NCBI GenBank assembly: GCA_964016885.1
Contig: OZ024740.1
Span: 98,208,001-98,272,000 of the forward strand
Direction: 5' to 3'
Length of the DNA stretch: 64,000 nt
From: Eledone cirrhosa
Lineage: Eukaryota
Shown here: piece by piece, positions 1,761 through 64,000 of the stretch
Layout of the letters: each line of letters opens with the position of its first letter
Numbering within the stretch: position 1 is the first letter of the stretch
Notes under the pieces: generated by a model
Database searches by the model: none
What the model saw: only the letters and a program-made list of their open reading frames with translations
What the model was told of the DNA's origin: nothing
Made by a program: the position numbers and the translations under genes

Positions 1761-2391
1761 GGAATTAATTAACAATTATTAATAATGGTTTATCGTGCAA
1801 TGGCCATCCTCTATAACGAGGGGGCAGCCATCATGTATATACATAATTTTGATAGGTTTCAGCCAGTATTGGCCTAGGCATGTCTAACTTAATAGCATCA
1901 CCAAGGAAAAGCGGACGTAAAATGATGATGTTGATGATGATGATGATGATATATGTATGGATGTGTGTCTGTGGAGGTGGGTGTGAGTGTATGTGCAAGC
2001 CAACCTACATAAGTCTTTTTATTTGTAAATTTTCTACTCTAACCATAATTTTCAGTAGCACCACTCCACATAAATTCCTCAATTTAAGAATGACCTGTAG
2101 TATCTATTTAATACTATTAACCTTAATTGAATATATATCTGACCAAGAATGCTATTTATGAAAATCAGTCATATGGAACTATTGTCATCTTGCCTGATGG
2201 TTTGAACTTTACAACACCACCTGCCTCTTTGAGGTCAAATACCAACCCTACTAGCATCTACAAACTGACCAATGAGAATTAAGACTATTCCTGCTGACAA
2301 CATTAAAATATTCCTAACAAGCTCATATGTCCCAAGGCTCTGATACCATCAACACTATAAACACAGAGCTGGCATATCTTAGGACTGACTA

Positions 2392-2447
2392 ACTGCCTGA
2401 TGAGGTCATAGCCATTCAATGGCTATCATCGAAATATATATAGCAGT
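2392..2447 (+). ncRNA. Type I hammerhead ribozyme
   Basis: actgc CTGATGA ggtcatagccat-tca-atggctatcatc GAAA tatata TA gcagt; 5-bp stem I; AATAAA just downstream. Confidence 0.8.
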
Positions 2448-2704
2448 AAATAAAGGATTATGAGTTCATGCAATTGACTTATGTTTCGTCACTATATATA
2501 TATATATATTAGGTATAGGATTATCCAAGATGTAGTAATGGTTAATTACTACACTGGATATGGTTGACGTACGGTAAGAGGTTACTCTACGAGTTATGGA
2601 AGAATTGTTCAAGAAGCTTAGTTCCTGATCCTTCAGTATTCCGGAGTGTATATAAAGAATGAATAATAACAGGTAGACATCATAAAAAGGTAATTTATTC
2701 CGTG

Positions 2705-2816
2705 TGCTTACAAGTGTTTCCACGGTGGTACTGCAGCCTAGTTCCGCTACGTGCAAATTCACAAGTATTTGCAGAACTCGAATATCCAATGCTGTGACCA
2801 CTGTTTCCTCAGAGCA
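2705..2816 (-). ncRNA. Type I HHR with extended stem II (family A, inverted arm)
   Basis: Reverse complement of 3948-4059. Confidence 0.7.
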
Positions 2817-3110
2817 GAATGGTAAATTTACAATGTAAAAACCCTTAAGTGGGGTTGTTGGGGAAGATAGAGTGGAACAGGAAGAGAGAAAAGTAGGGAA
2901 GAGGGAGAGAGAAGGAAAGATATGCAGGGGTTGGAGAAGTAGGAGAGGGTGGCTTGTAGATATCTTAATCAAAATGTTATGGTAGGGGTTTTATTGGTTA
3001 TTTTTGGAGAGATGCGTAGATAGTTGAGGTCGGAATTATTTATTGCCCCAGAGGGCAGGTTCATAGATGTTGAGAGGGAGGTAGGTCAAAGGTGAGAGAG
3101 AGAGAGTGTA

Positions 3111-3455
3111 ATGAACGACCAGAAATGGTATTATATCGGATCTACCACCACATCGTTTAAATCTCGCTGGTACCGTCATCGATTCTCAATCAAACATCTG
3201 AATCACCGTTTTGTGACCACGCTCGCCAACAAGACCTGGCAACTCCGTGAACACAACCAACAGTTCACCTTAAAATGGGATATACTTTCCAGCGCAAATG
3301 CATATCGGAGTGGATTGAAGTACTGCAGGTTATGTAACCTTGAGCTATTTTACATACTAAAATCCAAAAACAAACTACTTAACGATAGAATCGAACGATC
3401 ATTATACTGCAACCACAAACTAAAAGCTAAATTCTCTCACTATAAAATGACTTAA
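3111..3455 (+). pseudogene. PLE GIY-YIG endonuclease C-terminal part (Hydra-clade-like)
   Basis: YIGST..FKSRWYRH..LANKTWQL..LKWDIL..CRLC.LE..LLNDRIE..CNH; the apparent ATG lies in the inverted arm, so it is not a real start. Confidence 0.85.
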
Positions 3456-3947
3456 CATTCGAACCCGTAACTACAACACCACTTTCTAGCTGACAACCTT
3501 CTCTTCCCCCCACACTACAAGAGAATACACTGCTTATCACTATACATGGTAACTCAGTACAATTCCTAGATTACTACTACAAAACCAAAAGTTCACTCAC
3601 CAAACATACTTTATCTGTCCCCTCTCTACCTATATATCTCTCTCTACATCCATTACACTCTCTCTCTCTCACCTTTGACCTACCTCCCTCTCAACATCTA
3701 TGAACCTGCCCTCTGGGGCAATAAATAATTCCGACCTCAACTATCTACGCATCTCTCCAAAAATAACCAATAAAACCCCTACCATAACATTTTGATTAAG
3801 ATATCTATAAGCCACCCTCTCCTACTTCTCCAACCCCTGCATATCTTTCCTTCTCTCTCCCTCTTCCCTACTTTTCTCTCTTCCTGTTCCACTCTATCTT
3901 CCCCAACAACCCCGCTTAAGGGTTTTTACATTGTAAATTTACCATTC

Positions 3948-4059
3948 TGCTCTGAGGAAACAGTGGTCACAGCATTGGATATTCGAGTTCTGCAAATACT
4001 TGTGAATTTGCACGTAGCGGAACTAGGCTGCAGTACCACCGTGGAAACACTTGTAAGCA
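3948..4059 (+). ncRNA. Type I HHR with extended stem II (family A)
   Basis: tgct CTGAGGA aacagtggt...accaccgtg GAAAC actt GTA agca; AATAAA follows. Confidence 0.7.
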
Positions 4060-4106
4060 CACGGAATAAATTACCTTTTTATGATGTCTACCTGTTATTA
4101 TTCATT

Positions 4107-4194
<88 letters not shown>

Positions 4195-4319
4195 ATATAT
4201 ACAAATATACATATGAAAGCATAATGAACAGTGAGATGTATTATGTGTCAATGTATGATATATAATGCAATTTATATTATATATATATATATATGTGTGT
4301 GTGTGTCTGTGTAAATAGA

Positions 4320-16278: not shown

Positions 16279-16388
<110 letters not shown>

Positions 16389-16620
16389 TATATATATATA
16401 TATATATATATAACAAGTTATCCTTATAGGTAATCCAGAGGTTGTGAGTACTCTGCGTCGTGGATAGTTTTAACGTACGGCTTTGTTTGACTCAACAAGA
16501 TGTTTCCATAGTTAGGCAGCGAGTTCACGGGAATTCCTATGCAGGTTATACTTGGAGTAATAATAGTGAAAGATTGAAGAGTGACATGTTTGGCTGTGCA
16601 ACAAGGAGTTTTACTTCAAA

Positions 16621-16725
16621 TATTAACAATTGTTTCATTGATCAGGTGAGACAAGAGGCCGCTAATCGAAGTTGCGTCACTCGATCTCCATTACATTATT
16701 TACCTCTGACCAAATCCTCAGAATA
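16621..16725 (-). ncRNA. Type I HHR with extended stem II (family B)
   Basis: tatt CTGAGGA tttggtcag...ctgatcaat GAAAC aatt GTT aata. Confidence 0.7.
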
Positions 16726-17365
16726 CAAATAATTCATACATGGCATGATATATATAGAGAAATAGCGTAGAATCAAAACAATAACAGCAATGATAAAATA
16801 TATGATAAATAGGTAAAGAAGTTACAGATGTAAAAAGTAAAAAGTAAGAAAAAAAGATACAATAAAAATGTAATGGAAAATAATGGAAAAATAATAAAAA
16901 TATAAAGAAATAAAGATAAGTGAGAGCATATAAGTACAGAATATGATAGTGGTGGTGGTGAGTAAGTGTCTGTATACGAATGCTGTGGTGGATGTCGTGC
17001 TAACATGTAAAGCCATATTCAAAACATACATAGATATGTCTAGAGAATCTGATGTAGTAACACATGCCAGATAAAAGATAAAACAATAAATTAGAAATTA
17101 AGTGGGAGATACTAGTATGAGACCCAAGGGCTAAGGGTGGGTGATGAATGGGGTTTTTGACAAGTGTGTGGGGTAAATGTTTTGCTGATTGTCTTGTCTT
17201 AATGGGGTTGATGTGTTTTCAAGGAGAGAGGGTGAAAGAGATGTTAAGAGATTTATGATCTAGTAACCAGTCGGCTGTCTGACAGCTAATAGCGATGTGA
17301 TGGTGTGTATTCTATACATTAAAATCCAGGTGGTTCAGTTCTAATTTTAGGATTGCTGGGTCAAA

Positions 17366-17684
17366 TCACGGTGGTTTGAAATTTGTGAACTTGGTAGCTA
17401 CTTTGTGCCTACAGAAAATTGATCTTTCTATTTTGCTGTTAAGCATCATCTTATCGTACCTTAAAATATGGAATAGCTCCATATTGCAAAGTCTGCAGTG
17501 AGACATTTCATTGTTGCAGGCCCTTGCTCCCGATAATTTTGACCAGCTAATCCTATATTCCTGGTTTTTGTTTTTAAGCTGCCAGATTTTATTGGCGAAC
17601 GTTGTTGAGATCTCCAGTCTATGGTTCTTCATGGAGTGTCTGTGAACGTACCATCTTTTTTTTAACTCCCCAACCGTGGAACCT
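17366..17684 (-). pseudogene. PLE GIY-YIG endonuclease C-terminal part
   Basis: GST..RWYVHRHS..FANKIWQLK..ISW..CRLCNMELF..LNSKIERS.FCRH. Confidence 0.8.
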
Positions 17685-17820
17685 ATGTAATGCCAAGATC
17701 GAGTGACGCAACTTCCATGGATTAGCGGCCTCTAAACTCACCTGATCAATGAAACAATTGTTAATACCTGAAATAAAGCCCCTTATTGTACAGCCAACCA
17801 TGTTACTCTTCAACCTTTCA

Positions 17821-22145: not shown

Positions 22146-22188
22146 ACGATGTACTAGTTTCAAGCTTATTAGCTATCGTCAGCACCGT
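22146..22188 (-). ncRNA. Minimal type I HHR (family C)
   Basis: Reverse complement of 22473-22515. Confidence 0.85.
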
Positions 22189-24909: not shown

Positions 24910-24964
24910 ACTGCTATATATATTTCGGTGACATCCATCATTGGCTGTGACCTCTTCAGGCAGT
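24910..24964 (-). ncRNA. Type I HHR (same family as 2392-2447)
   Basis: actgc CTGAAGA ggtcacagcca-atga-tggatgtcacc GAAA tatata TA gcagt. Confidence 0.8.
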
Positions 24965-30485: not shown

Positions 30486-30613
30486 AAAACACAAAAATAT
30501 ACATGCTTAAATACACACGCACACTTACACATCCATACATTCGATACGTACACACACACACACACACGAGTCCCTAGTGTCCGCGCATTGCCTGGAGACT
30601 TAGCTGAGAATGG

Positions 30614-30695
30614 ACTCCCTGATGACATAATGAATTCTCGATGGTTACATTGCGTAACTATCTTTATCCCATTACAGAAACTAATTAGTTGGAGT
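30614..30695 (+). ncRNA. Type I HHR
   Basis: actcc CTGATGA cataatg...cattaca GAAAC taatta GTT ggagt. Confidence 0.85.
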
Positions 30696-31154
30696 GAACA
30701 TTTTAGTAAGTAACTTAATTTTTAATTTTTTAAATTTTCTTATTTTACGTCTTTTATATAATTGTTCTGCATCCTCCTGCATTGAACCACCTAGGTACTA
30801 TGACATAACTCATGTATTTGCTAGCATTAGTGTACATCTGTACGCATATGTTGGTAAATATACTAATTCTCTATATTTATCTCCAAATTATTTATTTGTT
30901 GAGCAAACCTGCCAAATCCACTACTAACTCATTGTAGTGGTAGTAGGCTTTTGTCATTTTACCACCCCACTCCTTCCGACTAGCCTCAGTGTCACGTGAT
31001 TGATTCTTTAGAATCTGCCATTTGACCAGAGACAGGGAACTTTTTCAGTGCTTTGGAATTCAGTCCCCGCTAGCTGTTCCATCTACCGAATTATTATTAT
31101 TTTTATATGAGTCCCTAGTGGCCGCGCATTGCCTGGAGACTTAGCTGAGAATAG

Positions 31155-31236
31155 ACTCCCTGATGACGTAATGAATTATCGATGGTTACATTGCGTAACT
31201 ATCTTTATCCCATTACAGAAACTAATTAGTTGGAGT
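31155..31236 (+). ncRNA. Type I HHR
   Basis: actcc CTGATGA cgtaatg...cattaca GAAAC taatta GTT ggagt; inner hairpin gatggttac/gtaactatc. Confidence 0.85.
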
Positions 31237-31288
31237 GAAAATTTTAGTAAGTTAATTTTTAATTTTTAAAATTTTCTTATTTTACGTC

Positions 31289-32594
<1,306 letters not shown>

Positions 32595-37978: not shown

Positions 37979-38057
37979 CATATATATGTGCATATATATC
38001 TATATATCTATATATATATATATATATATTTATTTATTTATTAAAACAACAGATTAA

Positions 38058-38108
38058 AGTTTAAGCAAAGAATTGCTGCTTTCACCCTTAACGGGATCTT
38101 CTGAAACT
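38058..38108 (-). ncRNA. HHR-like motif with U4A core change (second copy 40004-40054)
   Basis: agttt CAGAAGA t ccc-gttaa-ggg t GAAA gca..tgc TT aaact; the homolog at 25130 has canonical CTGAAGA. Confidence 0.55.
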
Positions 38109-38759
38109 AACAAAGTCAATCTGTGAACGCAGAAGTGAATATTTAAAAAAATGTTGCAACCGAAGGAAGACAGGAAGACGATACTTTGGTTTGTGGAAAC
38201 GTTACCTGGCAAAGAACGGTAAAAAACGAATATAATACGTCATTATTTGGAGCGGTGAAAAACAATTACACGCAAAGACAAAACCACGTTTATGGTATAA
38301 AAAAATTCGTAGACTAATATTCTATTAGCTGGTTCATAGAGACGTTCTCTGGCAATGAACGGAAAAAAACGAAGAAAATACGTCATATGTGGAGTGGGGA
38401 GAACAATTGCACGCAAATACAAAACCACGTAAAAGGTATAACAGAAGTCGTAGACTAATATTCTAACTAGGAAACTGAATGATTCTCGGCTTCAGAGTTA
38501 AGAATAAAGTAAATAAAATACAGAGGTAATTGAAATTAAATAAATACATACACGCATCCATAAACGTACATACACTAGCATACGCGAAAACACTCGCCAT
38601 AGGTATACAAATACACGCACATACACAAAAAAACAAAGAAACAAAAAAAAACCGCACGTACATACAGAACCCACGCAACGGCTGTACCCGCACGCACATA
38701 CAAAACCCACGCAAAGGCTTACCCGCACCAATACGAATGTAACACCAAATGCACATAAA

Positions 38760-38790
<31 letters not shown>

Positions 38791-39078
38791 CGTGCATACA
38801 TATAATTAAATAAATGTATATAAATAAATAAATACGTATATAACAAGCGCACACACATACCTACATGTAAATACACATATGTTCGGAGACTACGTCAACC
38901 AAAACACAAAGTACACATATACACGACCCCTCATACTCACACAGACGCAAAACTCACGTATACACATAACCAAAAGCATATGTACCAGAATATATAATAT
39001 ATACGCCATAACATATACAATCAAATATACGTACGAGAAAGTATACGTACCTTCACAAAACATACAGGTAATATATAC

Positions 39079-39732
39079 TTACCATACAAATAAGTAATGG
39101 TATAAACATAACATATACTTAGCTACCACATCAAGACGTAACATTTCCGCGTATAGTTCGTACTGTCCGTTAGGGTATAATGTGGGGCTGTAATACAGGA
39201 AAGTTTTGTGCAATTTATGTTTACAAGCCGAAATTGCCTCAGATGTTTTGTTTAAGATGTGGTCTTTGGCGTAGCGTATTTCCAGAGCCTCAGCGGCGCA
39301 GAGGTCACATGGTCTTTTATTTCCGTTATACGATCTAGCCCTAGCTAGGCTCTCCCAGTGTAACCTACATTGGGTGTGGTTGCCTTTTAGACTCCAGATA
39401 TAAGCTGAAAGTGACGTCATATTCCTTCTTAAAGGGTAATGAAAAGCATGGGTATGCATGTAAAGACGCTGCTTGAATCTATTGGCGGTTAACCCTATGT
39501 AGGCCCTACGGCACGTGGGTGTTTCAACCTTACATTTGTAGACAATGTTACTAGAGAGACATTTCCCGGAAAGGGGGCAGTCAACCCGATTCCTACAATT
39601 ACAGTTAGTACTAACTACAGGATTGCAAGTGATCCTACGGCTAGGTAGTCTAGCTAAATTTGCAGCTGTGATGTTATGTGCAAGTTTCGGAGTCGTAGAG
39701 TAAGAAATTTTAATAGTATTTCTATTAAAAAT
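39079..39732 (-). pseudogene. Open linker plus GIY-YIG endonuclease frame of the RT-deleted PLE
   Basis: Stop-free by hand translation from 39732 into ORF 39079..39459; no upstream in-frame start. Confidence 0.75.
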
Positions 39733-39944
39733 TTGTCGGAATGGACATGCACGGCATTAGAATCCTTAATAGAACGAATTCTATTCTTCAGGTCCTGCTG
39801 GAAGGAATTGCTCCTATTCCGTAATTTGATACTCCGTATGAGTTCCAAGACATCATTTTCGAAGGGTAGCAATGCTGGGTTACTCGGAGGGTTATTATAG
39901 GTTTTAAACCCAAATTTATCCTATTTGTTGTCTGCTTTTCCCTG

Positions 39945-39978
<34 letters not shown>

Positions 39979-39983
<5 letters not shown>

Positions 39984-40707
39984 TTATTAAAATAACAGAT
40001 TAAAGTTTAAGCAAAGAATTGCTGCTTTCACCCTTAACGGGATATTCTGAAACTAATAAAGTCAATCTGTGAACGCAGAAGTGAATATTTAAAAAAATGT
40101 TGCAACCGAAGAAAGACAGGAAGACGATACTTTGGTTCGTGGAAACGTTACCTGGCAAAGAACGGTAAAATACGAATATAATACGTCATTATTTGGAGCG
40201 GTGAAAAACATTTACACGCAAAGACAAAACCACGTTTATGGTATAAAAGAATTCGTTTGACTAATATTCTATTAGGTGGTTCATAGAGACGTTCTCTGGC
40301 AATGAACGAAAAAAAACGAAGAAAATACGTCATATGTGGAGTGGGGAGAACAATTGCACGCAAAGACAAAAGCACGTAAAAGGTATAACAGAAGTCGTAG
40401 ACTAAAATTCTAACTAGGAAACTGAATGATTCTCGGCTTCAGAGTTAAGAATAAAGTAAATAAAATACAGAGGTAATTGAAATTAAATAAATACACACAC
40501 GCATCCATAAACGTACATACACAAGCATACGCGAAAACACTCGCCATAGGTATACAAATACACGCACATACACAAAAAAACAAAGAAACAAAAAAAACCC
40601 GCACGCACATACAGAACCCACGCAACGGCTGTACCCACACGCACATACAGAACCCACGCAACGGCATACCCGCACCAATACGAATGTAACACCAAATGCA
40701 CATAAAA

Positions 40708-40745
<38 letters not shown>

Positions 40746-41870
40746 GTGCATACATATAATTAAATAAATACGTATATAACAAGCGCACACACATACCTAC
40801 ATGTAAATACACATATGTTCGGAGACTACGTCAACCAAAACACAAAGTACACATATATACGAACCCTATAACTCACGCAGACGCAAAACTCATGTATACA
40901 CATAACCAAAAGCATATGTACCAGAATATATAATATATACGCCATAACATATACAATCAAATATACGTACGAGAAAGTATACGTACCTTCACAAAACATA
41001 CAGGTAATACATACTTACCATACAAATAAGTAATGGTATAAACATAACATATACTTAGCTACCACATCAAGACGTAAAATATCCGCGTATAGTTCGTACT
41101 ATCCGTTAGGGTATAATGTGGGGCTGTAATACAGGAAAGTTTTGTGCAATTTATGTTTACAAGCCGAAATTGCCTCAGATGTTTTGTTTAAGATGTGGTC
41201 TTTGGCGTAGCGTATTTCCAGAGCCTCAGCGGCGCAGAGGTCACATGGTCTTTTATTTCCGTTATACGATCTAGCCCTAGCTAGGCTCTCCCAGTGTAAC
41301 TTATATTGGGTGTGGTTGCCTTTTAGACTCCAGATATAAGCTGAAAGTGACGTCATATTCCTTCTTAAAGGGTAACGAAAAGAATGAGTATGTATGTAAA
41401 TACGCTGCTTGAATCTATTTGCGGTTAACCCTATGTAGGCCCTACGGGATGTGGGTGTTTCAACCTTACATTTGTAGACAATGTTACTAGAGAGGCATTT
41501 CCCGGATAGGGGGCAGTCAACCCGATTCCTACAATTACAGTTAGTACTAACTACAGGATTGCAAGTGTTCCTACGGCTAGGTAGTTTAGCTAAATTTGAA
41601 GCTGTGATGTTATGTGCAAGTTTCAGAGTCGTAGAGTAAGAAATTTTAATAGTATTTCTATTAAAAATTTGTCGGAATGGACTTGCACGGCATTAGAATC
41701 CTTAATAGAACGAATTCTATTCTTCAGGTCCTGCTGGAAGGAATTGCTCCTATTCCGAAATTTGATACTCCGTATGAGTTCCAAGACATCCTTTTCAATG
41801 CTGGGTTACTCGGAGGGTTATTATAGGTTTTAAACCCAAATTCATCCTGTTTGTTGTCTGCTTTTCCCTG

Positions 41871-47110: not shown

Positions 47111-49115
47111 CATCATCATCAATATCATCATCGTTTAACATCCATCTTCCACGCTTGCATGGGTTTGGACGGGAATTTTCCCACTGAGGCAAGATTGGTT
47201 GTCTTGCTCGTATAGGACTGTCTGGCGGGTTTTCTATGGCTGGATACTCTTCCTAACACCAACCACGTTTACAGTGTGGACTGGGAGGTTTTTACCGTGT
47301 TATCTACACGGCCACATTACAGTGTGGACTGTGTGTTTTTTTTTGTCGTGACACCTACACGATCTCATTTATTTCGGGCTGGATGTTGTGGTACCAACAT
47401 AACTTTACATTGAAAGGGGTGGTGTGGATGGGGTGGGGGTAGTGGGACGGGGGTGTATTTTTGTTAGAGGTGCCTACTGACTGTAGGTTTCGATTTGTAC
47501 TTAGGCAAGGCGGGTCTTCTGTATTACTGTGTAGCGCCAAAGATCTCGGTCCAGTGACATTGTCTTGGAGAGGTGTAAGTGTGTGAGGTCGGAATTTATC
47601 AAGTCGTCCCAAGTTTTTCAGGGTCTGCCTACTCCGTGGCTACCGTCTATTTTTATCGCCCTGCACTTTTTTATACAGCTGTCGTCTTTCATGCGCATCA
47701 CGAGACCGTACCAACGTATACTTCTCTTGAGTAAACAAAATCTGATCCCTCTTATACCTAATTTCTCCCTTAGTTCGTTTATGCTTTGCCGTTCACGTAT
47801 ATTACTATTACACATCCAGCGGAGCATGCAAGCTTCGTTTCTCTCTTGTCTGCGTATATCCTCTGCACACAATGCCCAGGTCTCACTGCCATGCAACATT
47901 CCTGTTCGTATGCAGGCATCGTACAACCTGCCTTTCATTTTTAGGGAGAACCCTTTAGCGGCAAATAGTGGTATAAGCTCTCTGAACTTTTTCCATCCAG
48001 TTCTGACTCTAGCTACTGTACTTTCAGAGCACCCTCCCCCACTGCTGATTTTGTCACCCAGGTAACGGAAGCTGTCCACTATTTCTATAGAACCCTCTGC
48101 GCAGTTGAAAGAGCTAGTATTTAGTGGGCACTTGCTGCTACTTATTGCACCAGAGCACCGGCCACATGTAAAATCTATGTTCTTAGTTAGCTTACCTGTG
48201 ATCCCACTACATCTTTTATGCACCCATACTTTGCATTTGGGACACAAAATGGAGTTTCTACCTACGCCTTTCCTACACACTGAGCATGGCCACTTCCCGG
48301 AAGGGACCGCCGCCTTATTTTCTTTCTTACAAACTAGAACTTTAGTCTTAGCCAGGTTAATTTTAAGGCCTTTTGATTCTAGGCCGTGCTTCCATGTTTG
48401 GAATTTCTTCTCTAGCTCGGCCATTGATTCAGCTATGAGTGTTAGGTCATCTGCGTATAGGAGTTCCCATGGGCAACCGGTCTTGAACTCCTCTGTTATA
48501 GCCTGAAGGGCAATAATAAATAGTAGGGGGCTGAGAACAGAGCCCTGATGGACGCCAACTTTTACGCTAAACTCTTCACTATATTCGTTGTTAATTCTAA
48601 TCTTGCTGACTGTTTCTTTATACATGGCTTGTATAGCTCTCACAGGCCATTCGTCATCACCTAGTTTTCTAAGAGCCCACCAGATAATGGAACGGGGGAC
48701 TCTGTCGAAGGCTTTCTCCAAGTCGACAAAAGCTAAGTATAGGGGTTTACTTTTAGTTAGGTACTTCTCCTGTAGTTGTCGTACAATGAAAAGAGCGTCT
48801 GTGGTACTTTTTCCTGACACAAACCCGAACTGCATTTCATCTAGATCAATTTGCTCTCTGATTAATTGCGCTATTACTTTTTCTGTGACCTTCATGACCT
48901 GGTCAATTAATTTAATGCCTCTATAGTTACTCCTATCTAGGGCATCTCTTTTACCCATGTAGCAGTTAATGATGATGCTGCTACCCAGTCCTTCGTAACG
49001 ACCGCATTCTGTATGACTTGATTTACTATCCGGGTGACCATGGTGTGTCCCACCGTTCCCGATGCTTTCAGCATTTCAGCAACTATTTCCGAAGGCCCAG
49101 CCGCCTTACCCGTCT
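47111..49115 (-). mobile_element. RTE LINE, 5'-truncated, ~2 kb
   Basis: RT ORF, 3' UTR and (GAT)n tail; (TA)n at both ends. Confidence 0.95.
47618..48958 (-). pseudogene. RTE reverse transcriptase frame (truncated ORF2, premature stop)
   Basis: QFGF, AFVDLEKAFD, GVHQGSVLSPLLF, YADD, FRYLG. Confidence 0.9.
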
Positions 49116-57929: not shown

Positions 57930-57985
<56 letters not shown>

Positions 57986-57986
<1 letters not shown>

Positions 57987-59975
57987 CCTTCGGAAATAGT
58001 TGCTGAGATGCTGAAGGCATCTGGCACGGTGGGACACACCATGGTCACCCGGATAGTTAACCAAGTCGTACAGAATGGGGTTGTTCCGAAGGACTGGCAT
58101 AGCAGCATCACCGTTAACTGTTATAAGGGTAAAGGAGATGCCCTAGATAGGAGTAACTATAGAGGCATTAAATTAATCGACCAGGTCATGAAGGTCACGG
58201 AAAAAGTAATAGCGCAACTAATCAGAGAGAGAATTGACCTAGATGAAATGCAGTTCGGGTTTGTGTCAGGCAAAAGTACCACAGACGCTCTTTTCATTGT
58301 ACGACAACTACAGGAGAAGTACCTAGCTAAAGGTAAACCCCTCTACTTAGCTTTTGTCGACTTGGAGAAAGCCTTGGATAGAGTCCCCCGTTCCATTATC
58401 TGGTGGGCTCTTAGAAAACTAGGTGTCGACGAATGGCTTGTGAGAGCTATACAAGCCATGTATAAAGAAACAGTCAGCAAGGTTAGAATTAACAACGAAT
58501 ATAGTGAAGAGTTTTGCGTAAAAGTTGGCGTCCATCAGGGCTCTGTTCTCAGCCCCCTACTATTTATTATTGCCCTTCAGGCTATAACAGAGGAGTTCAA
58601 GACCGGTTGCCCATGGGAACTCCTATACGCAGACGACCTGACACTCATAGCTGAATCAATTGCCGAGCTAGAGAAGAAATTCCAAACATGGAAGCACGGC
58701 CTAGAATCAAAAGGCCTTAAAATTAACCTGGCTAAGACTAAAGTTCTAGTTTGTAGGAAAGAAAATAAGGCGGCGGTCCCTTCCGGGAAATGGTCATGCT
58801 CAGTGTGTAGGAAAGGCGTAGGTAGAAACTCCATTTTATGTCCCAAATGCAAAGTATGGGTGCATAAAAGATGTAGTGGGATCACAGGTAAGCTAACTAA
58901 GAACATAGATTTTACATGTGGCCGGTGCTCTGGTGCAATAAGTAGCAGCAAGTGCCCACTAAATACTAGCTCTTACAACTGCGCAGAGGGCTCTATAGAA
59001 ATAGTGGACAGCTTCCGTTACCTGGGTGACAAAATCAGCAGTGGGGGAGGGTGCTCTGAAAGTACAGTAGCTAGAGTCAGAACTGGATGGAAAAAGTTCA
59101 GAGAGCTTATACCACTATTAGCCGCTAAAGGGTTCTCCCTAAAAATGAAAGGCAGTTTGTATGATGCCTGCATACGAACAGCAATGTTGCATGGCAGTGA
59201 GACCTGGGCATTGTGTGCAGAGGATATACGCAGACTAGAGAGGAACGAAGTTTGCATGCTCCGCTGGATGTGTAATAGTAATATACGTGAACGGCAAAGC
59301 ATAAACGAACTAAGAAAACAATTAGAAATAAGAGGGATCAGATGTTGTTTACTCGAGAGAAGGCTACGTTGGTATGGACACGTGATGCGCATGAAAGTAG
59401 ATAGCTGTATAACAAAGTGCAGGGCAATAAAGATAGACGGTAGCCACGGAATAGGCAGACCTAGAAAAACCTGGGACGAGCTGATAAACTCCGACATCAC
59501 ACACTTACACCTCTCCAAGACAATGTCACTGGACCGAGACCTTTGGCGGTACTCAGTAATAGAGAAGACCCGCCTTACCTAAATACATAGTAAAACCTAC
59601 TACAGCCAGTAGGCATCTCTAACAAAATACACCCCGTCCCACCACCACCACCCCATCCACACCACCCCCTTCTATGTAAAGTTATGTTAGTGCCACACCA
59701 TCCAGGCCGAAACAAATGAGATCTTGTAGGTGTCACGACAAAAAAACACACAGTCCACGCTGTAATGTGGCCGTGTAGGCAACACGGTAAAAACCTCCCA
59801 GACCCACACTGTAAATGTGGTTGGTGTTAGGAAGGGCATCCAACTGTAGAAAACATGCCAGACAGTCCTATGCGAGCAAGATAATCACTCTTGCCTCAAG
59901 TGGGAATACCCCCGTCCAAACCCATGCAAGCGTGGAACACGGACGTTAAACGTTGATGATGATGATGATGATGAT
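57986..59975 (+). mobile_element. RTE LINE, 5'-truncated, ~2 kb, young
   Basis: 524-aa open frame, 3' UTR, (GAT)n tail. Confidence 0.95.
58008..59582 (+). CDS. RTE ORF2 C-terminal half: reverse transcriptase with PHD-like insertion (AP endonuclease missing)
   Basis: QFGF, DLEKA.D, GVHQGSVLSPLLF, YADD, YLG, WYGHV, GRPRKTW; expression not shown. Confidence 0.85.
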   Translation: MLKASGTVGHTMVTRIVNQVVQNGVVPKDWHSSITVNCYKGKGDALDRSNYRGIKLIDQVMKVTEKVIAQLIRERIDLDEMQFGFVSGKSTTDALFIVRQLQEKYLAKGKPLYLAFVDLEKALDRVPRSIIWWALRKLGVDEWLVRAIQAMYKETVSKVRINNEYSEEFCVKVGVHQGSVLSPLLFIIALQAITEEFKTGCPWELLYADDLTLIAESIAELEKKFQTWKHGLESKGLKINLAKTKVLVCRKENKAAVPSGKWSCSVCRKGVGRNSILCPKCKVWVHKRCSGITGKLTKNIDFTCGRCSGAISSSKCPLNTSSYNCAEGSIEIVDSFRYLGDKISSGGGCSESTVARVRTGWKKFRELIPLLAAKGFSLKMKGSLYDACIRTAMLHGSETWALCAEDIRRLERNEVCMLRWMCNSNIRERQSINELRKQLEIRGIRCCLLERRLRWYGHVMRMKVDSCITKCRAIKIDGSHGIGRPRKTWDELINSDITHLHLSKTMSLDRDLWRYSVIEKTRLT

Positions 59976-61914: not shown

Positions 61915-64000
61915 TCATCATCTTCATCATCATCATCATTTTACTTCCGCATTTCCCTGCTTGCAAGGCATGAGTGTTATTCAGCACAACATCACTCCGC
62001 TTGTCACCTCCACCGTGAGCTTCAGCGATTTGAGGTCTGTTCTCACCACCTCTGCCCATGTTTTTCCTGGTCTACCTCTAACATGTCTTCCTACAACTGG
62101 CACTTCCTCAGCCATTGATCATCCTCCATGTGCACCACATGTCCATACCATCTCTGTCTCCTCTCTCGCACACTACATTCTATCCCTCTCAGACACAGTT
62201 TCTCTCTCAACACAGTCATGCTGGGTCGTTCACGGACATTGACATTGCATATCCAACGGAGCAAGTTTGCCTCATTTCTCTCCAGCCGTCGCATATCCTC
62301 TGCAGTTGCTGCCCATGTCTCACAACCATGGAGCATCGCGCTCCTCACACAGGCATCATATAACCGGCCTTTCGTACGCAGGGAGAAACCCTTCTTCGTC
62401 AGCAGAGGAAGCAGCTCCCTAAACTTCTTCCAACCTGTCCTTATTCTAGATACTATGGTCTCGGAACACCTCCCTCCGATGCTAATCTGATCTCTTAGGT
62501 ACCGGAAATTATCCACCACTTCCATAGCAGCTGCCTGCATTTGAAAAATGTGTCTATCAATGGGACTTCTACTGTCTAATTTCCCTGTACATCTACTGCA
62601 TACGTATTTCTCCCTACCTGTTAGTTTGCCTGCTATCCCACTACATGTCTTGTGTACCCAGGATCTGCATTGTGTGCACTTTATAGAATTTATGCCAGTT
62701 CCTTTTCTGCATATCGAACATAGCCATTTCCCTGACGGAATCAGAGTTTTGTCCTCTTTTCTACTCATCAACACTTTTGTCTTAGCTAGGTTCACTTTCA
62801 GTCCTCTTGCATCCAACTGCTGTTTACATAGCCAGAATTTATTCTCTAGCTCCTCTACTGATTCTGCTATAAGAACCAGATGGTCAGCATAGAGAAGTTC
62901 CCATGGACAGCCAGTCTTAAACTCCTCTGTTATGGCTTGGAGGACTATAATGAACAAGAGCGAGCTGAGGAACGAACCTTAATGTACTCCTACTTGAATA
63001 TGGAATTCCTCACTAAACTCCATTCCTACCCTCACTTTACTGACAGCACTTCTGTAAAAAGTTTGCACTGTCCTCACAAGCCATTCCTCAACACCTAGTT
63101 TCCTTAGGGACCACCAGATGACAGATCGAGGTACCCTATCAAAGGCTAAGTATAGTGGCTTATTCTTCTCTAAGAACCTCTTTTATAATTGTCTCACCAA
63201 GAAGAGGGCATCTGTTGTACTCTCCCAGGCACAAAAACAAACTGCATCTCATCTAGTTTGAACCTTTCTCTAATTAGTTGTGCTAATATCCTTTCTGCCA
63301 CTTTCATAACCTGATCCATCAGTTTTATACGCCTACAATTGCTCCAGAGCATCACTTTTACCTTTGTAGCAATTTATGAGAATACTGCTGCACCAGTCTT
63401 TGGGTATGACACCACCATATATAGCCTGATTGATGATGCGTGCAACCAGTTTAGTGCCTACGTCCCCTGATGCCTTTAGCATCTCAGCAACTATCCCCAC
63501 GGTCCAGCAGTCTTGCCATCTTTCATTTCCTTAATCGCCCCTTGGACGCTATATTCGTCACTCTCAATAGCTGGTCCCTCTGTCGGATCTACTGAGGGTA
63601 ATTTCTCTCTCTCTCCCATTCGTTCTCCACATTCATCAGTCTCTCATAATAACATTTCCAGGCTTCCTTTTTCTGATCATTCGTGACACTAAGTACACCG
63701 GCATCATTCTGGACACATTTATCTCCAACAACATCCTGATTTGCATTGACACACTGCCTTGCAATGTGGAACACCGCACGCCTCTGATCTTCCCGTCGCA
63801 GATCATTGGCAAACCTCCTACTCTCAGCCTCCCTGCGTGCTAAGTACACCTGACGTCTAGCTTCTCTCTTAGTGGCTGTATATTCTTCCCTACTCCCACC
63901 CTTTTTCCAAGCCTTCCATGCTAGTCTTTTGTCTCTAATGGCCTTATGTACTGTGCTGTTCCACCACCAGGTCACTCTCTGTCTGGTTGGAGCTCTGGTC
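61915..64000 (-). mobile_element. RTE LINE (second subfamily), degenerate, runs off the window
   Basis: ORFs 62091..62957 and 63589..63975; (GAT)n tail at 61915-61937. Confidence 0.9.

Follow-up and report, generated by a model that had tools for sequence, protein, structure and literature searches.

Two hammerhead-like sequences lie close together in a 64,000-nt stretch of the Eledone cirrhosa genome (hereafter the window), which raises the question of whether this locus is a dedicated source of a defined RNA or one copy of a more widespread element. The preliminary description had reported ~185-bp direct repeats with a 541-nt spacing, and these are real, spanning 30568-30760 and 31109-31297 (193 and 189 nt, 94% identical, offset 541). 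Each repeat carries ACTCC-CTGATGA, a 51-nt stem II domain, GAAAC-TAATTA-GTT and GGAGT, and our analysis recovered the cores at 30619 and 31160, the predicted cuts after 30690 and 31231 and the stem III palindrome ACTAATTAGT as described. Hammerhead 1, a predicted type I hammerhead with an extended stem I (30603..30708, plus strand), has its CTGATGA core at 30619-30625, the palindrome at 30680-30689 and a GUU triplet, while predicted hammerhead 2 (31144..31249, plus strand), with a family-type stem II, has its core at 31160-31166 and its palindrome at 31221-31230. The two had been called intact, which holds for both cores but not for the whole of hammerhead 1, where an A at 30627 replaces the family G and turns the first stem II pair, G10.1-C11.1, into A.C. 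At the gathering score, Rfam returned no hammerhead match in the window, and at E<=10 only weak microsatellite-driven matches, none of them a hammerhead, were found in 30500-31350.

The arrangement seen as two repeats and a spacer is a permuted view of a tandem monomer. Numbered from the predicted cut, the window copy comprises 1.35 head-to-tail units: a 5'-truncated partial unit (30568..30690, plus strand; monomer +419 to +541), one complete, non-coding 541-nt cut-to-cut monomer (30691..31231, plus strand) and a last partial unit (31232..31292, plus strand) that runs from +1 to one of the two 3' ends of the family, termed S (about +65). The family's tail, about 115 nt with predicted hairpins, lies between S and the second end, L (+178), and corresponds to 30756..30868 (plus strand). 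Further into the monomer, the conserved TGTCACGTGA (30990..30999, plus strand), which we take to be E-box-like, is a putative internal promoter element, and an AT-rich segment (31090..31108, plus strand) is a frequent place of 5' truncation. The absence of a recognisable ORF was borne out, the longest ATG frame in the circular monomer being 41 aa, and Pfam gave no match in four short ORFs of the window. The copy is a single-arm insertion, with (AC)9 on its left flank (30550..30567), and lacks both an inverted partner arm and a recognisable target-site duplication. On its right, a (TA)n target microsatellite (31293..31330) is common to it and to a separate neighbour, the inverted two-arm 3' end of a very young Neptune/Nematis-type Penelope-like element (PLE; 31324..31760, tail about 40 nt), many of whose 3' ends are 100% identical. 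The window copy is itself young (93-98% identical to many other copies). Whereas GTCACGTG is present in 56 of 66 distinct monomers, the window copy lacks it upstream of hammerhead 1, its first unit starting at +419, downstream of the putative promoter motif. Because of this and the loss of G10.1, transcription of the window copy would need read-through and poor cutting is likely at one of its sites, so that double cleavage at this locus is doubtful. The locus is an ordinary, partly decayed copy and a predicted poor source of monomer RNA.

The unit recurs genome-wide, and the arrangement is not unique to the window locus. In the 3.0-Gb host genome (G000), a hammerhead pattern that placed no constraint on the stem III loop matched 10,173 places, as against none for the reversed control, and among the first 100 matches listed this loop read TAATTA in 99 and the triplet GTT in 99. 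The 724-nt window stretch used as a query gave 3,129 first-look candidates, 40 of which were scored. From the sampled loci we retrieved 66 distinct cut-to-cut monomers of 521-571 nt, falling into six clusters at 72-90% identity, and head-to-tail arrays of up to 3,427 nt (about 6.3 units). Five cluster representatives have longest ATG frames of 27-77 aa and a GC content of 0.34-0.38, and the circular 541-nt monomer has a predicted fold of -130.5 kcal/mol (z -5.7 vs 60 shuffles). Copies at 72% identity, at first regarded as old, belong to a young sister subfamily. Patterns for short-stem-II relatives gave 24 and 37 matches, nearly all of which, by eye, were deletion derivatives of the same family. 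A single (TA)n run can also hold a stack of different retrozyme subfamilies, or of retrozyme and PLE ends (L208, L285, L086, L046, L017). The reading of the preliminary description as retrozyme-type, with a cut-to-cut monomer and a dimeric hammerhead, fits the family, since the units are tandem, stem II co-varies and the palindrome favours a duplex over a hairpin. Back-junction reads (31231 to 30691), proposed as a check, cannot decide on circles, since genomic tandem copies carry the identical junction sequence.

The copies are dispersed to unrelated (TA)n sites with variable 5' ends, and their 3' ends follow a simple rule. In 75 merged best-hit regions the 3' end was either S, with CGTCTTTC followed by ATATA, or L, followed by (CT)n and (TA)n; nearly all S and L ends inspected run into (TA)n, directly or past (CT)n. 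Among 51 two-arm head-to-head insertions in this set, 44 paired L with S, one was S+S, none was L+L and six had another or a cut-off end, while the 28 one-arm insertions ended at S (16), L (10) or elsewhere (2); the set was restricted to at least 85% identity, leaves out five older or diverged rows and includes two or three rows that are duplicates of one insertion. A second set of 61 regions, taken in roughly position order on contig C1, gave 26 L+S, no S+S, no L+L and eight other pairs among 34 two-arm insertions, and 16 L, 12 S and three other ends among 31 one-arm insertions. The preliminary description had overlooked this Penelope-type signature of two ends. Non-majority variants were shared at 26% within an arm, 19% between opposite arms and 1% between loci; because opposite arms have such variants in common, both arms come from one source. 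Out of eight arrays inspected, one, a five-unit array (L052, G000:C8:31736500-31743500), alternates with a period of two, a pattern expected from a dimeric circle or from subsequent duplication. No A-to-G editing scars were found, the changes having no strand bias (82 A-to-G vs 101 T-to-C, with equal per-site rates). We infer one start site per target strand. In the accessible parts of the published work, reverse transcription by a purified PLE begins at two internal positions, one on either side of the tail, and both target strands are extended, the one-sided tail being the stretch between the two start sites (PMC11167929), and PLE insertions show truncation, partial tandems, an inverted arm and a one-sided tail (PMC8557442, PMC3846280).

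We therefore consider it likely that the window holds a 5'-truncated, 1.35-unit copy of an abundant non-coding tandem element with predicted hammerheads, that is, an animal non-LTR retrozyme, for which the reverse transcriptase (RT) and endonuclease of a PLE likely do the copying into TA microsatellites. Multimeric transcripts would self-cleave, probably as dimeric hammerheads, and the cleaved monomers would be ligated into circles. The PLE protein would then cut both strands of (TA)n, and cDNA would be primed at two internal sites of the RNA, at +65 on one strand and at +178 on the other. Repeated rounds of the template would yield tandem units, two truncated cDNAs would join head to head, and the enzyme may stutter on UCUCU at the L site.

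The strongest competitor, although we regard it as unlikely, is PLE-driven mobilisation from uncleaved, linear read-through multimers, in which the hammerhead would be a pseudo-LTR vestige and monomers and circles would play no part. Against this competitor stands stem II, which co-varies between subfamilies, with all four Watson-Crick pair types at one position. Ten stem II variants occur three or more times each, and in these 55 of 60 cells form Watson-Crick pairs (5,000 shuffles: mean 45, maximum 53). Across 15 variants 98% of cells pair, and the covariation score of 0.194 was reached by none of 500 shuffles, although double-sided changes occur in only one of the ten counted pairs and such scores are inflated by relatedness among the sequences. 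The core and the palindrome are kept even across subfamilies that are only 72-76% identical, the palindrome being nearly invariant, with predicted energies of -9.0 kcal/mol as a duplex vs +1.5 as a hairpin. This preference fits the dimeric cleavage described for animal hammerheads in what is accessible of PMC4209133 and PMC7229834. The predictions also offer the linear-multimer reading some ground, in that the minimum-energy local fold is a non-ribozyme form lying 2.2-2.5 kcal/mol below the hammerhead fold, and in a two-ribozyme transcript this gap widens to 17.8 kcal/mol. In the family core, moreover, GAAA is preceded by an extra A and the triplet is GUU, and both features count against activity. 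A GUU triplet cleaves more slowly than GUC. From the available text of two studies, eight of nine Xenopus retrozyme dimers did not cleave in vitro and one did (10.64898/2026.07.22.740005), while for an anole PLE unprocessed RNA was the dominant substrate and hammerhead cleavage was dispensable for insertion in vitro (PMC11167929).

The genomic ends of the family are likewise not at the cut, as linear multimers would have it, yet there is a modest excess of 5' ends just 3' of it. With a permuted profile, which has a blind zone near +200 to +260, 21 of 133 arm 5' ends in the best-hit set lay at +1 to +20 vs six in the 20 nt before the cut, above 300 uniform simulations, and in the position-ordered set, by the same profile, eight of 100 vs five, which is not above simulation. 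An apparent pile-up of 5' ends exactly at +1 was set aside as partly an artefact of the reference breakpoint, the permuted profile giving the weaker signal just described. The excess is no more than suggestive of cleavage in vivo, and stalling at stem I would leave the same pattern. Also speaking against uncleaved multimers, the units of dispersed arrays share private variants, in one array with a period of two.

The remaining explanations are far less probable. The preliminary description had offered, as its alternative, two stacked, truncated 3' ends of a coding PLE split by an AT-rich junction at ~31090-31108; the ends do resemble PLE ends, which here also stack within a single (TA)n, but the alternative fails because the AT-rich stretch is internal to the monomer in 59 of 66 distinct monomers, dozens of loci carry the 541-nt unit in head-to-tail order, with as many as about 6.3 repeats, and no arm in the 75 and 61 regions enters a coding body. 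We give equally little credence to a satellite that spreads purely as DNA, by unequal crossing-over or duplication, which would account for the tandem arrays and for the few insertions duplicated together with their flanks (L081) but not for dispersal to unrelated (TA)n sites, fixed 3' ends of two kinds, 5' truncation of varying extent and arms inverted head to head. A locus-specific, host-selected two-ribozyme cassette releasing a functional 541-nt RNA is the least credible of all, for although both cores and both cut triplets are present, the locus is a young, truncated copy, 93-98% identical to many others, with G10.1 lost in hammerhead 1.

On the preferred reading, in which a PLE enzyme likely copied the retrozyme, the L end deserves separate attention. 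The monomer template at the L site reads CTCT, and at least four (CT) units, and up to 38, follow terminal L ends in 35 of 56 cases, as against none of 79 internal copies. No (CT)n expansion was seen in 22 ends of subfamilies with ATCT or CTTT at the L site, nor in 66 S ends, and targets that already read TA-CT-TA are rare, at 2 of 4,408 TA runs over the two strands. For (CT)n confined to terminal L ends, the simplest reading is reiterative copying, or stuttering, at initiation; later slippage beside (TA)n, or target choice by pairing, would be the other explanations.

To which PLE the enzyme would belong was approached through endonuclease loci. Among 50 GIY-YIG endonuclease loci, drawn from 150 scored matches, there are at least six Neptune/Nematis-type families, the window neighbour at 31324-31760 included, the clade being assigned by the linker motif given in the accessible part of PMC8557442; their tails here are about 30-70 nt. 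No convincing monomer sequence was found in these families (50 loci; eight 3' UTRs aligned), one of 16 alignments of the monomer with the eight 3' UTRs being barely above the shuffle maximum (44 vs 41.5), and retrozyme sequence occurs in the GIY-YIG loci only as nested insertions (L238, L259). The window neighbour was rejected as a partner, as it has no sequence in common with the retrozyme. Sixty Hydra-type loci likewise gave no alignment with the monomer above its shuffles, so that convincing 3' homology to an autonomous PLE was absent from 110 loci, picked for endonuclease ORFs from tens of thousands of candidates. One Hydra-type family shares 13 nt with the S-site block; this match, about 1 kb away from the end of the family, we attribute to chance.

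The partner is nevertheless most likely of the Hydra type, which is favoured by geometry alone. The accessible text of PMC8557442 defines the Hydra clade by a CxCX5C linker and gives it (TA)n targets and hammerheads, and we found this linker in four of the five Hydra-type cases inspected. In the window, one such family, that at 17369-17731, is represented by a 3' end at 16380-17731 (minus strand) with an oversized GUU hammerhead at 16721. Like the retrozyme, this family has (TA)n targets, a hammerhead with an oversized stem II, a palindromic stem III, GUU, an S end at about +59 and a long tail, with ends at +56 to +63 in 15 of 23 cases and at +212 to +223 in four of 23. It differs in its tail of about 155 nt, in encoding RT and endonuclease and in giving alignments no better than shuffled controls. 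A similar build is seen in the family at window 3096-3452. We put forward, tentatively and with less confidence than the retrozyme assignment itself, that a dimeric Hydra-type Penelope enzyme primes both strands of a cut TA microsatellite, using two dedicated sites of a single circular ribozyme RNA, and that it stutters, telomerase-like, on UCUCU at one of them, writing new (CT)n and perhaps (TA)n. If true, thousands of copies would record rolling-circle reverse transcription and the birth of microsatellites in a telomerase relative.

In comparison with known systems, our verdict from the sequence is that the 541-nt-unit family is a new family of a known kind, the animal non-LTR retrozymes (Cervera and de la Pena 2020, PMC7229834; Li, Clavereau and Pollet 2026, 10.64898/2026.07.22.740005). 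As far as the accessible parts of these two sources describe them, metazoan non-LTR retrozymes share with our family non-coding tandem repeats, one type I hammerhead per unit (the first of the window copy lacking G10.1), a GC content below 50%, a weak, palindromic stem III of the kind that suits cleavage as a dimer, copy numbers in the thousands and PLEs alongside. True LTRs are absent from both, the monomers being permuted and head to tail with variable 5' ends and no repeat-internal-repeat unit. The monomers here (521-571 nt) are longer than the 170-400 nt given in PMC7229834 but within the 51-972 bp of 10.64898/2026.07.22.740005. Unlike the retrozymes in the available text of both papers, ours have a two-part stem II of about 50 nt and a GUU triplet, and the fixed two-end, inverted two-arm pattern is not described for retrozymes there. 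Cleavage and circles are reported in these sources for metazoan retrozymes, whereas for the present family both are predictions; an enzyme and template mobilising animal retrozymes are proposed but not shown in what is accessible of either. Our literature search, which most subscription papers lay outside, found no report of cephalopod retrozymes or of a two-end rule for retrozymes.

The insertions equally resemble those of EN+ PLEs, for which 5' truncation, partial tandems, an inverted 5' arm, a one-sided tail, (TA)n targeting and ends internal to the RNA, downstream of the predicted hammerhead cut, are described in the accessible portions of Craig et al. 2021 (PMC8557442), PMC3846280 and Frangieh et al. 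2024 (PMC11167929). They differ, judged against the same portions, in having no ORF, a tail of about 115 nt vs the published 30-40 bp, strict pairing of one S with one L arm, and (CT)n growth at one end. With PLE hammerheads, as partly accessible in Cervera and de la Pena 2014 (PMC4209133), the family has in common the extra C after the core and G10.1-C11.1, unlike them in its long, structured stem II, in place of a minimal motif, and in the additional A before GAAA. The plant-type LTR retrozyme, with a type III hammerhead in two LTRs and a 4-bp target duplication, is distinguished by the type I topology, tandem arrays and microsatellite flanks seen here. The family thereby offers countable genomic footprints, namely one arm per start site, variants common to both arms and template-dependent (CT)n growth. 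They yield precise predicted start sites, +65 and +178, for the in vitro PLE assay outlined in the accessible text of PMC11167929, and may explain part of the microsatellite load of the host genome.

Several other elements with hammerhead-like motifs lie in or beyond the window. In the 3' UTRs of Neptune-type PLEs there is a minimal hammerhead-like motif in which U3-A8 replaces C3-G8 (window 28703 and 31566, plus strand, and 31485 and 27203, minus strand; L239, L251, L267), a variant reported in the accessible part of PMC4209133. The youngest Neptune-type family mostly has GCAAC for GAAAC and may transpose with a dead ribozyme, and the very young Neptune-type PLE whose 3' end lies at 31324-31760 has a 784-aa open RT and GIY-YIG frame at L140:3724-6075. 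At window 2330-4200 there is an inverted two-arm insertion of a Hydra-like PLE with oversized hammerhead cores at 3952 (plus strand) and 2812 (minus strand) and a tail of about 140 nt. Another Hydra-type family, with 67,007 first-look candidates in the genome, has two copies at 38000-41692 (minus strand), which retain a hammerhead-like remnant, CAGAAGA...GAAA, close to the 3' end. Several other families contribute further hammerhead-like motifs, on the plus strand at 2397, 22479, 26485, 22752 and 45444 and on the minus strand at 24959, 22182, 56912 and 29775, those at 22182 and 22479 forming an inverted pair. Finally, fragments of a LINE-like reverse transcriptase family, presumably of the RTE type, were found at 47618-49075, 57969-59582 and 62091-62978 (minus strand).
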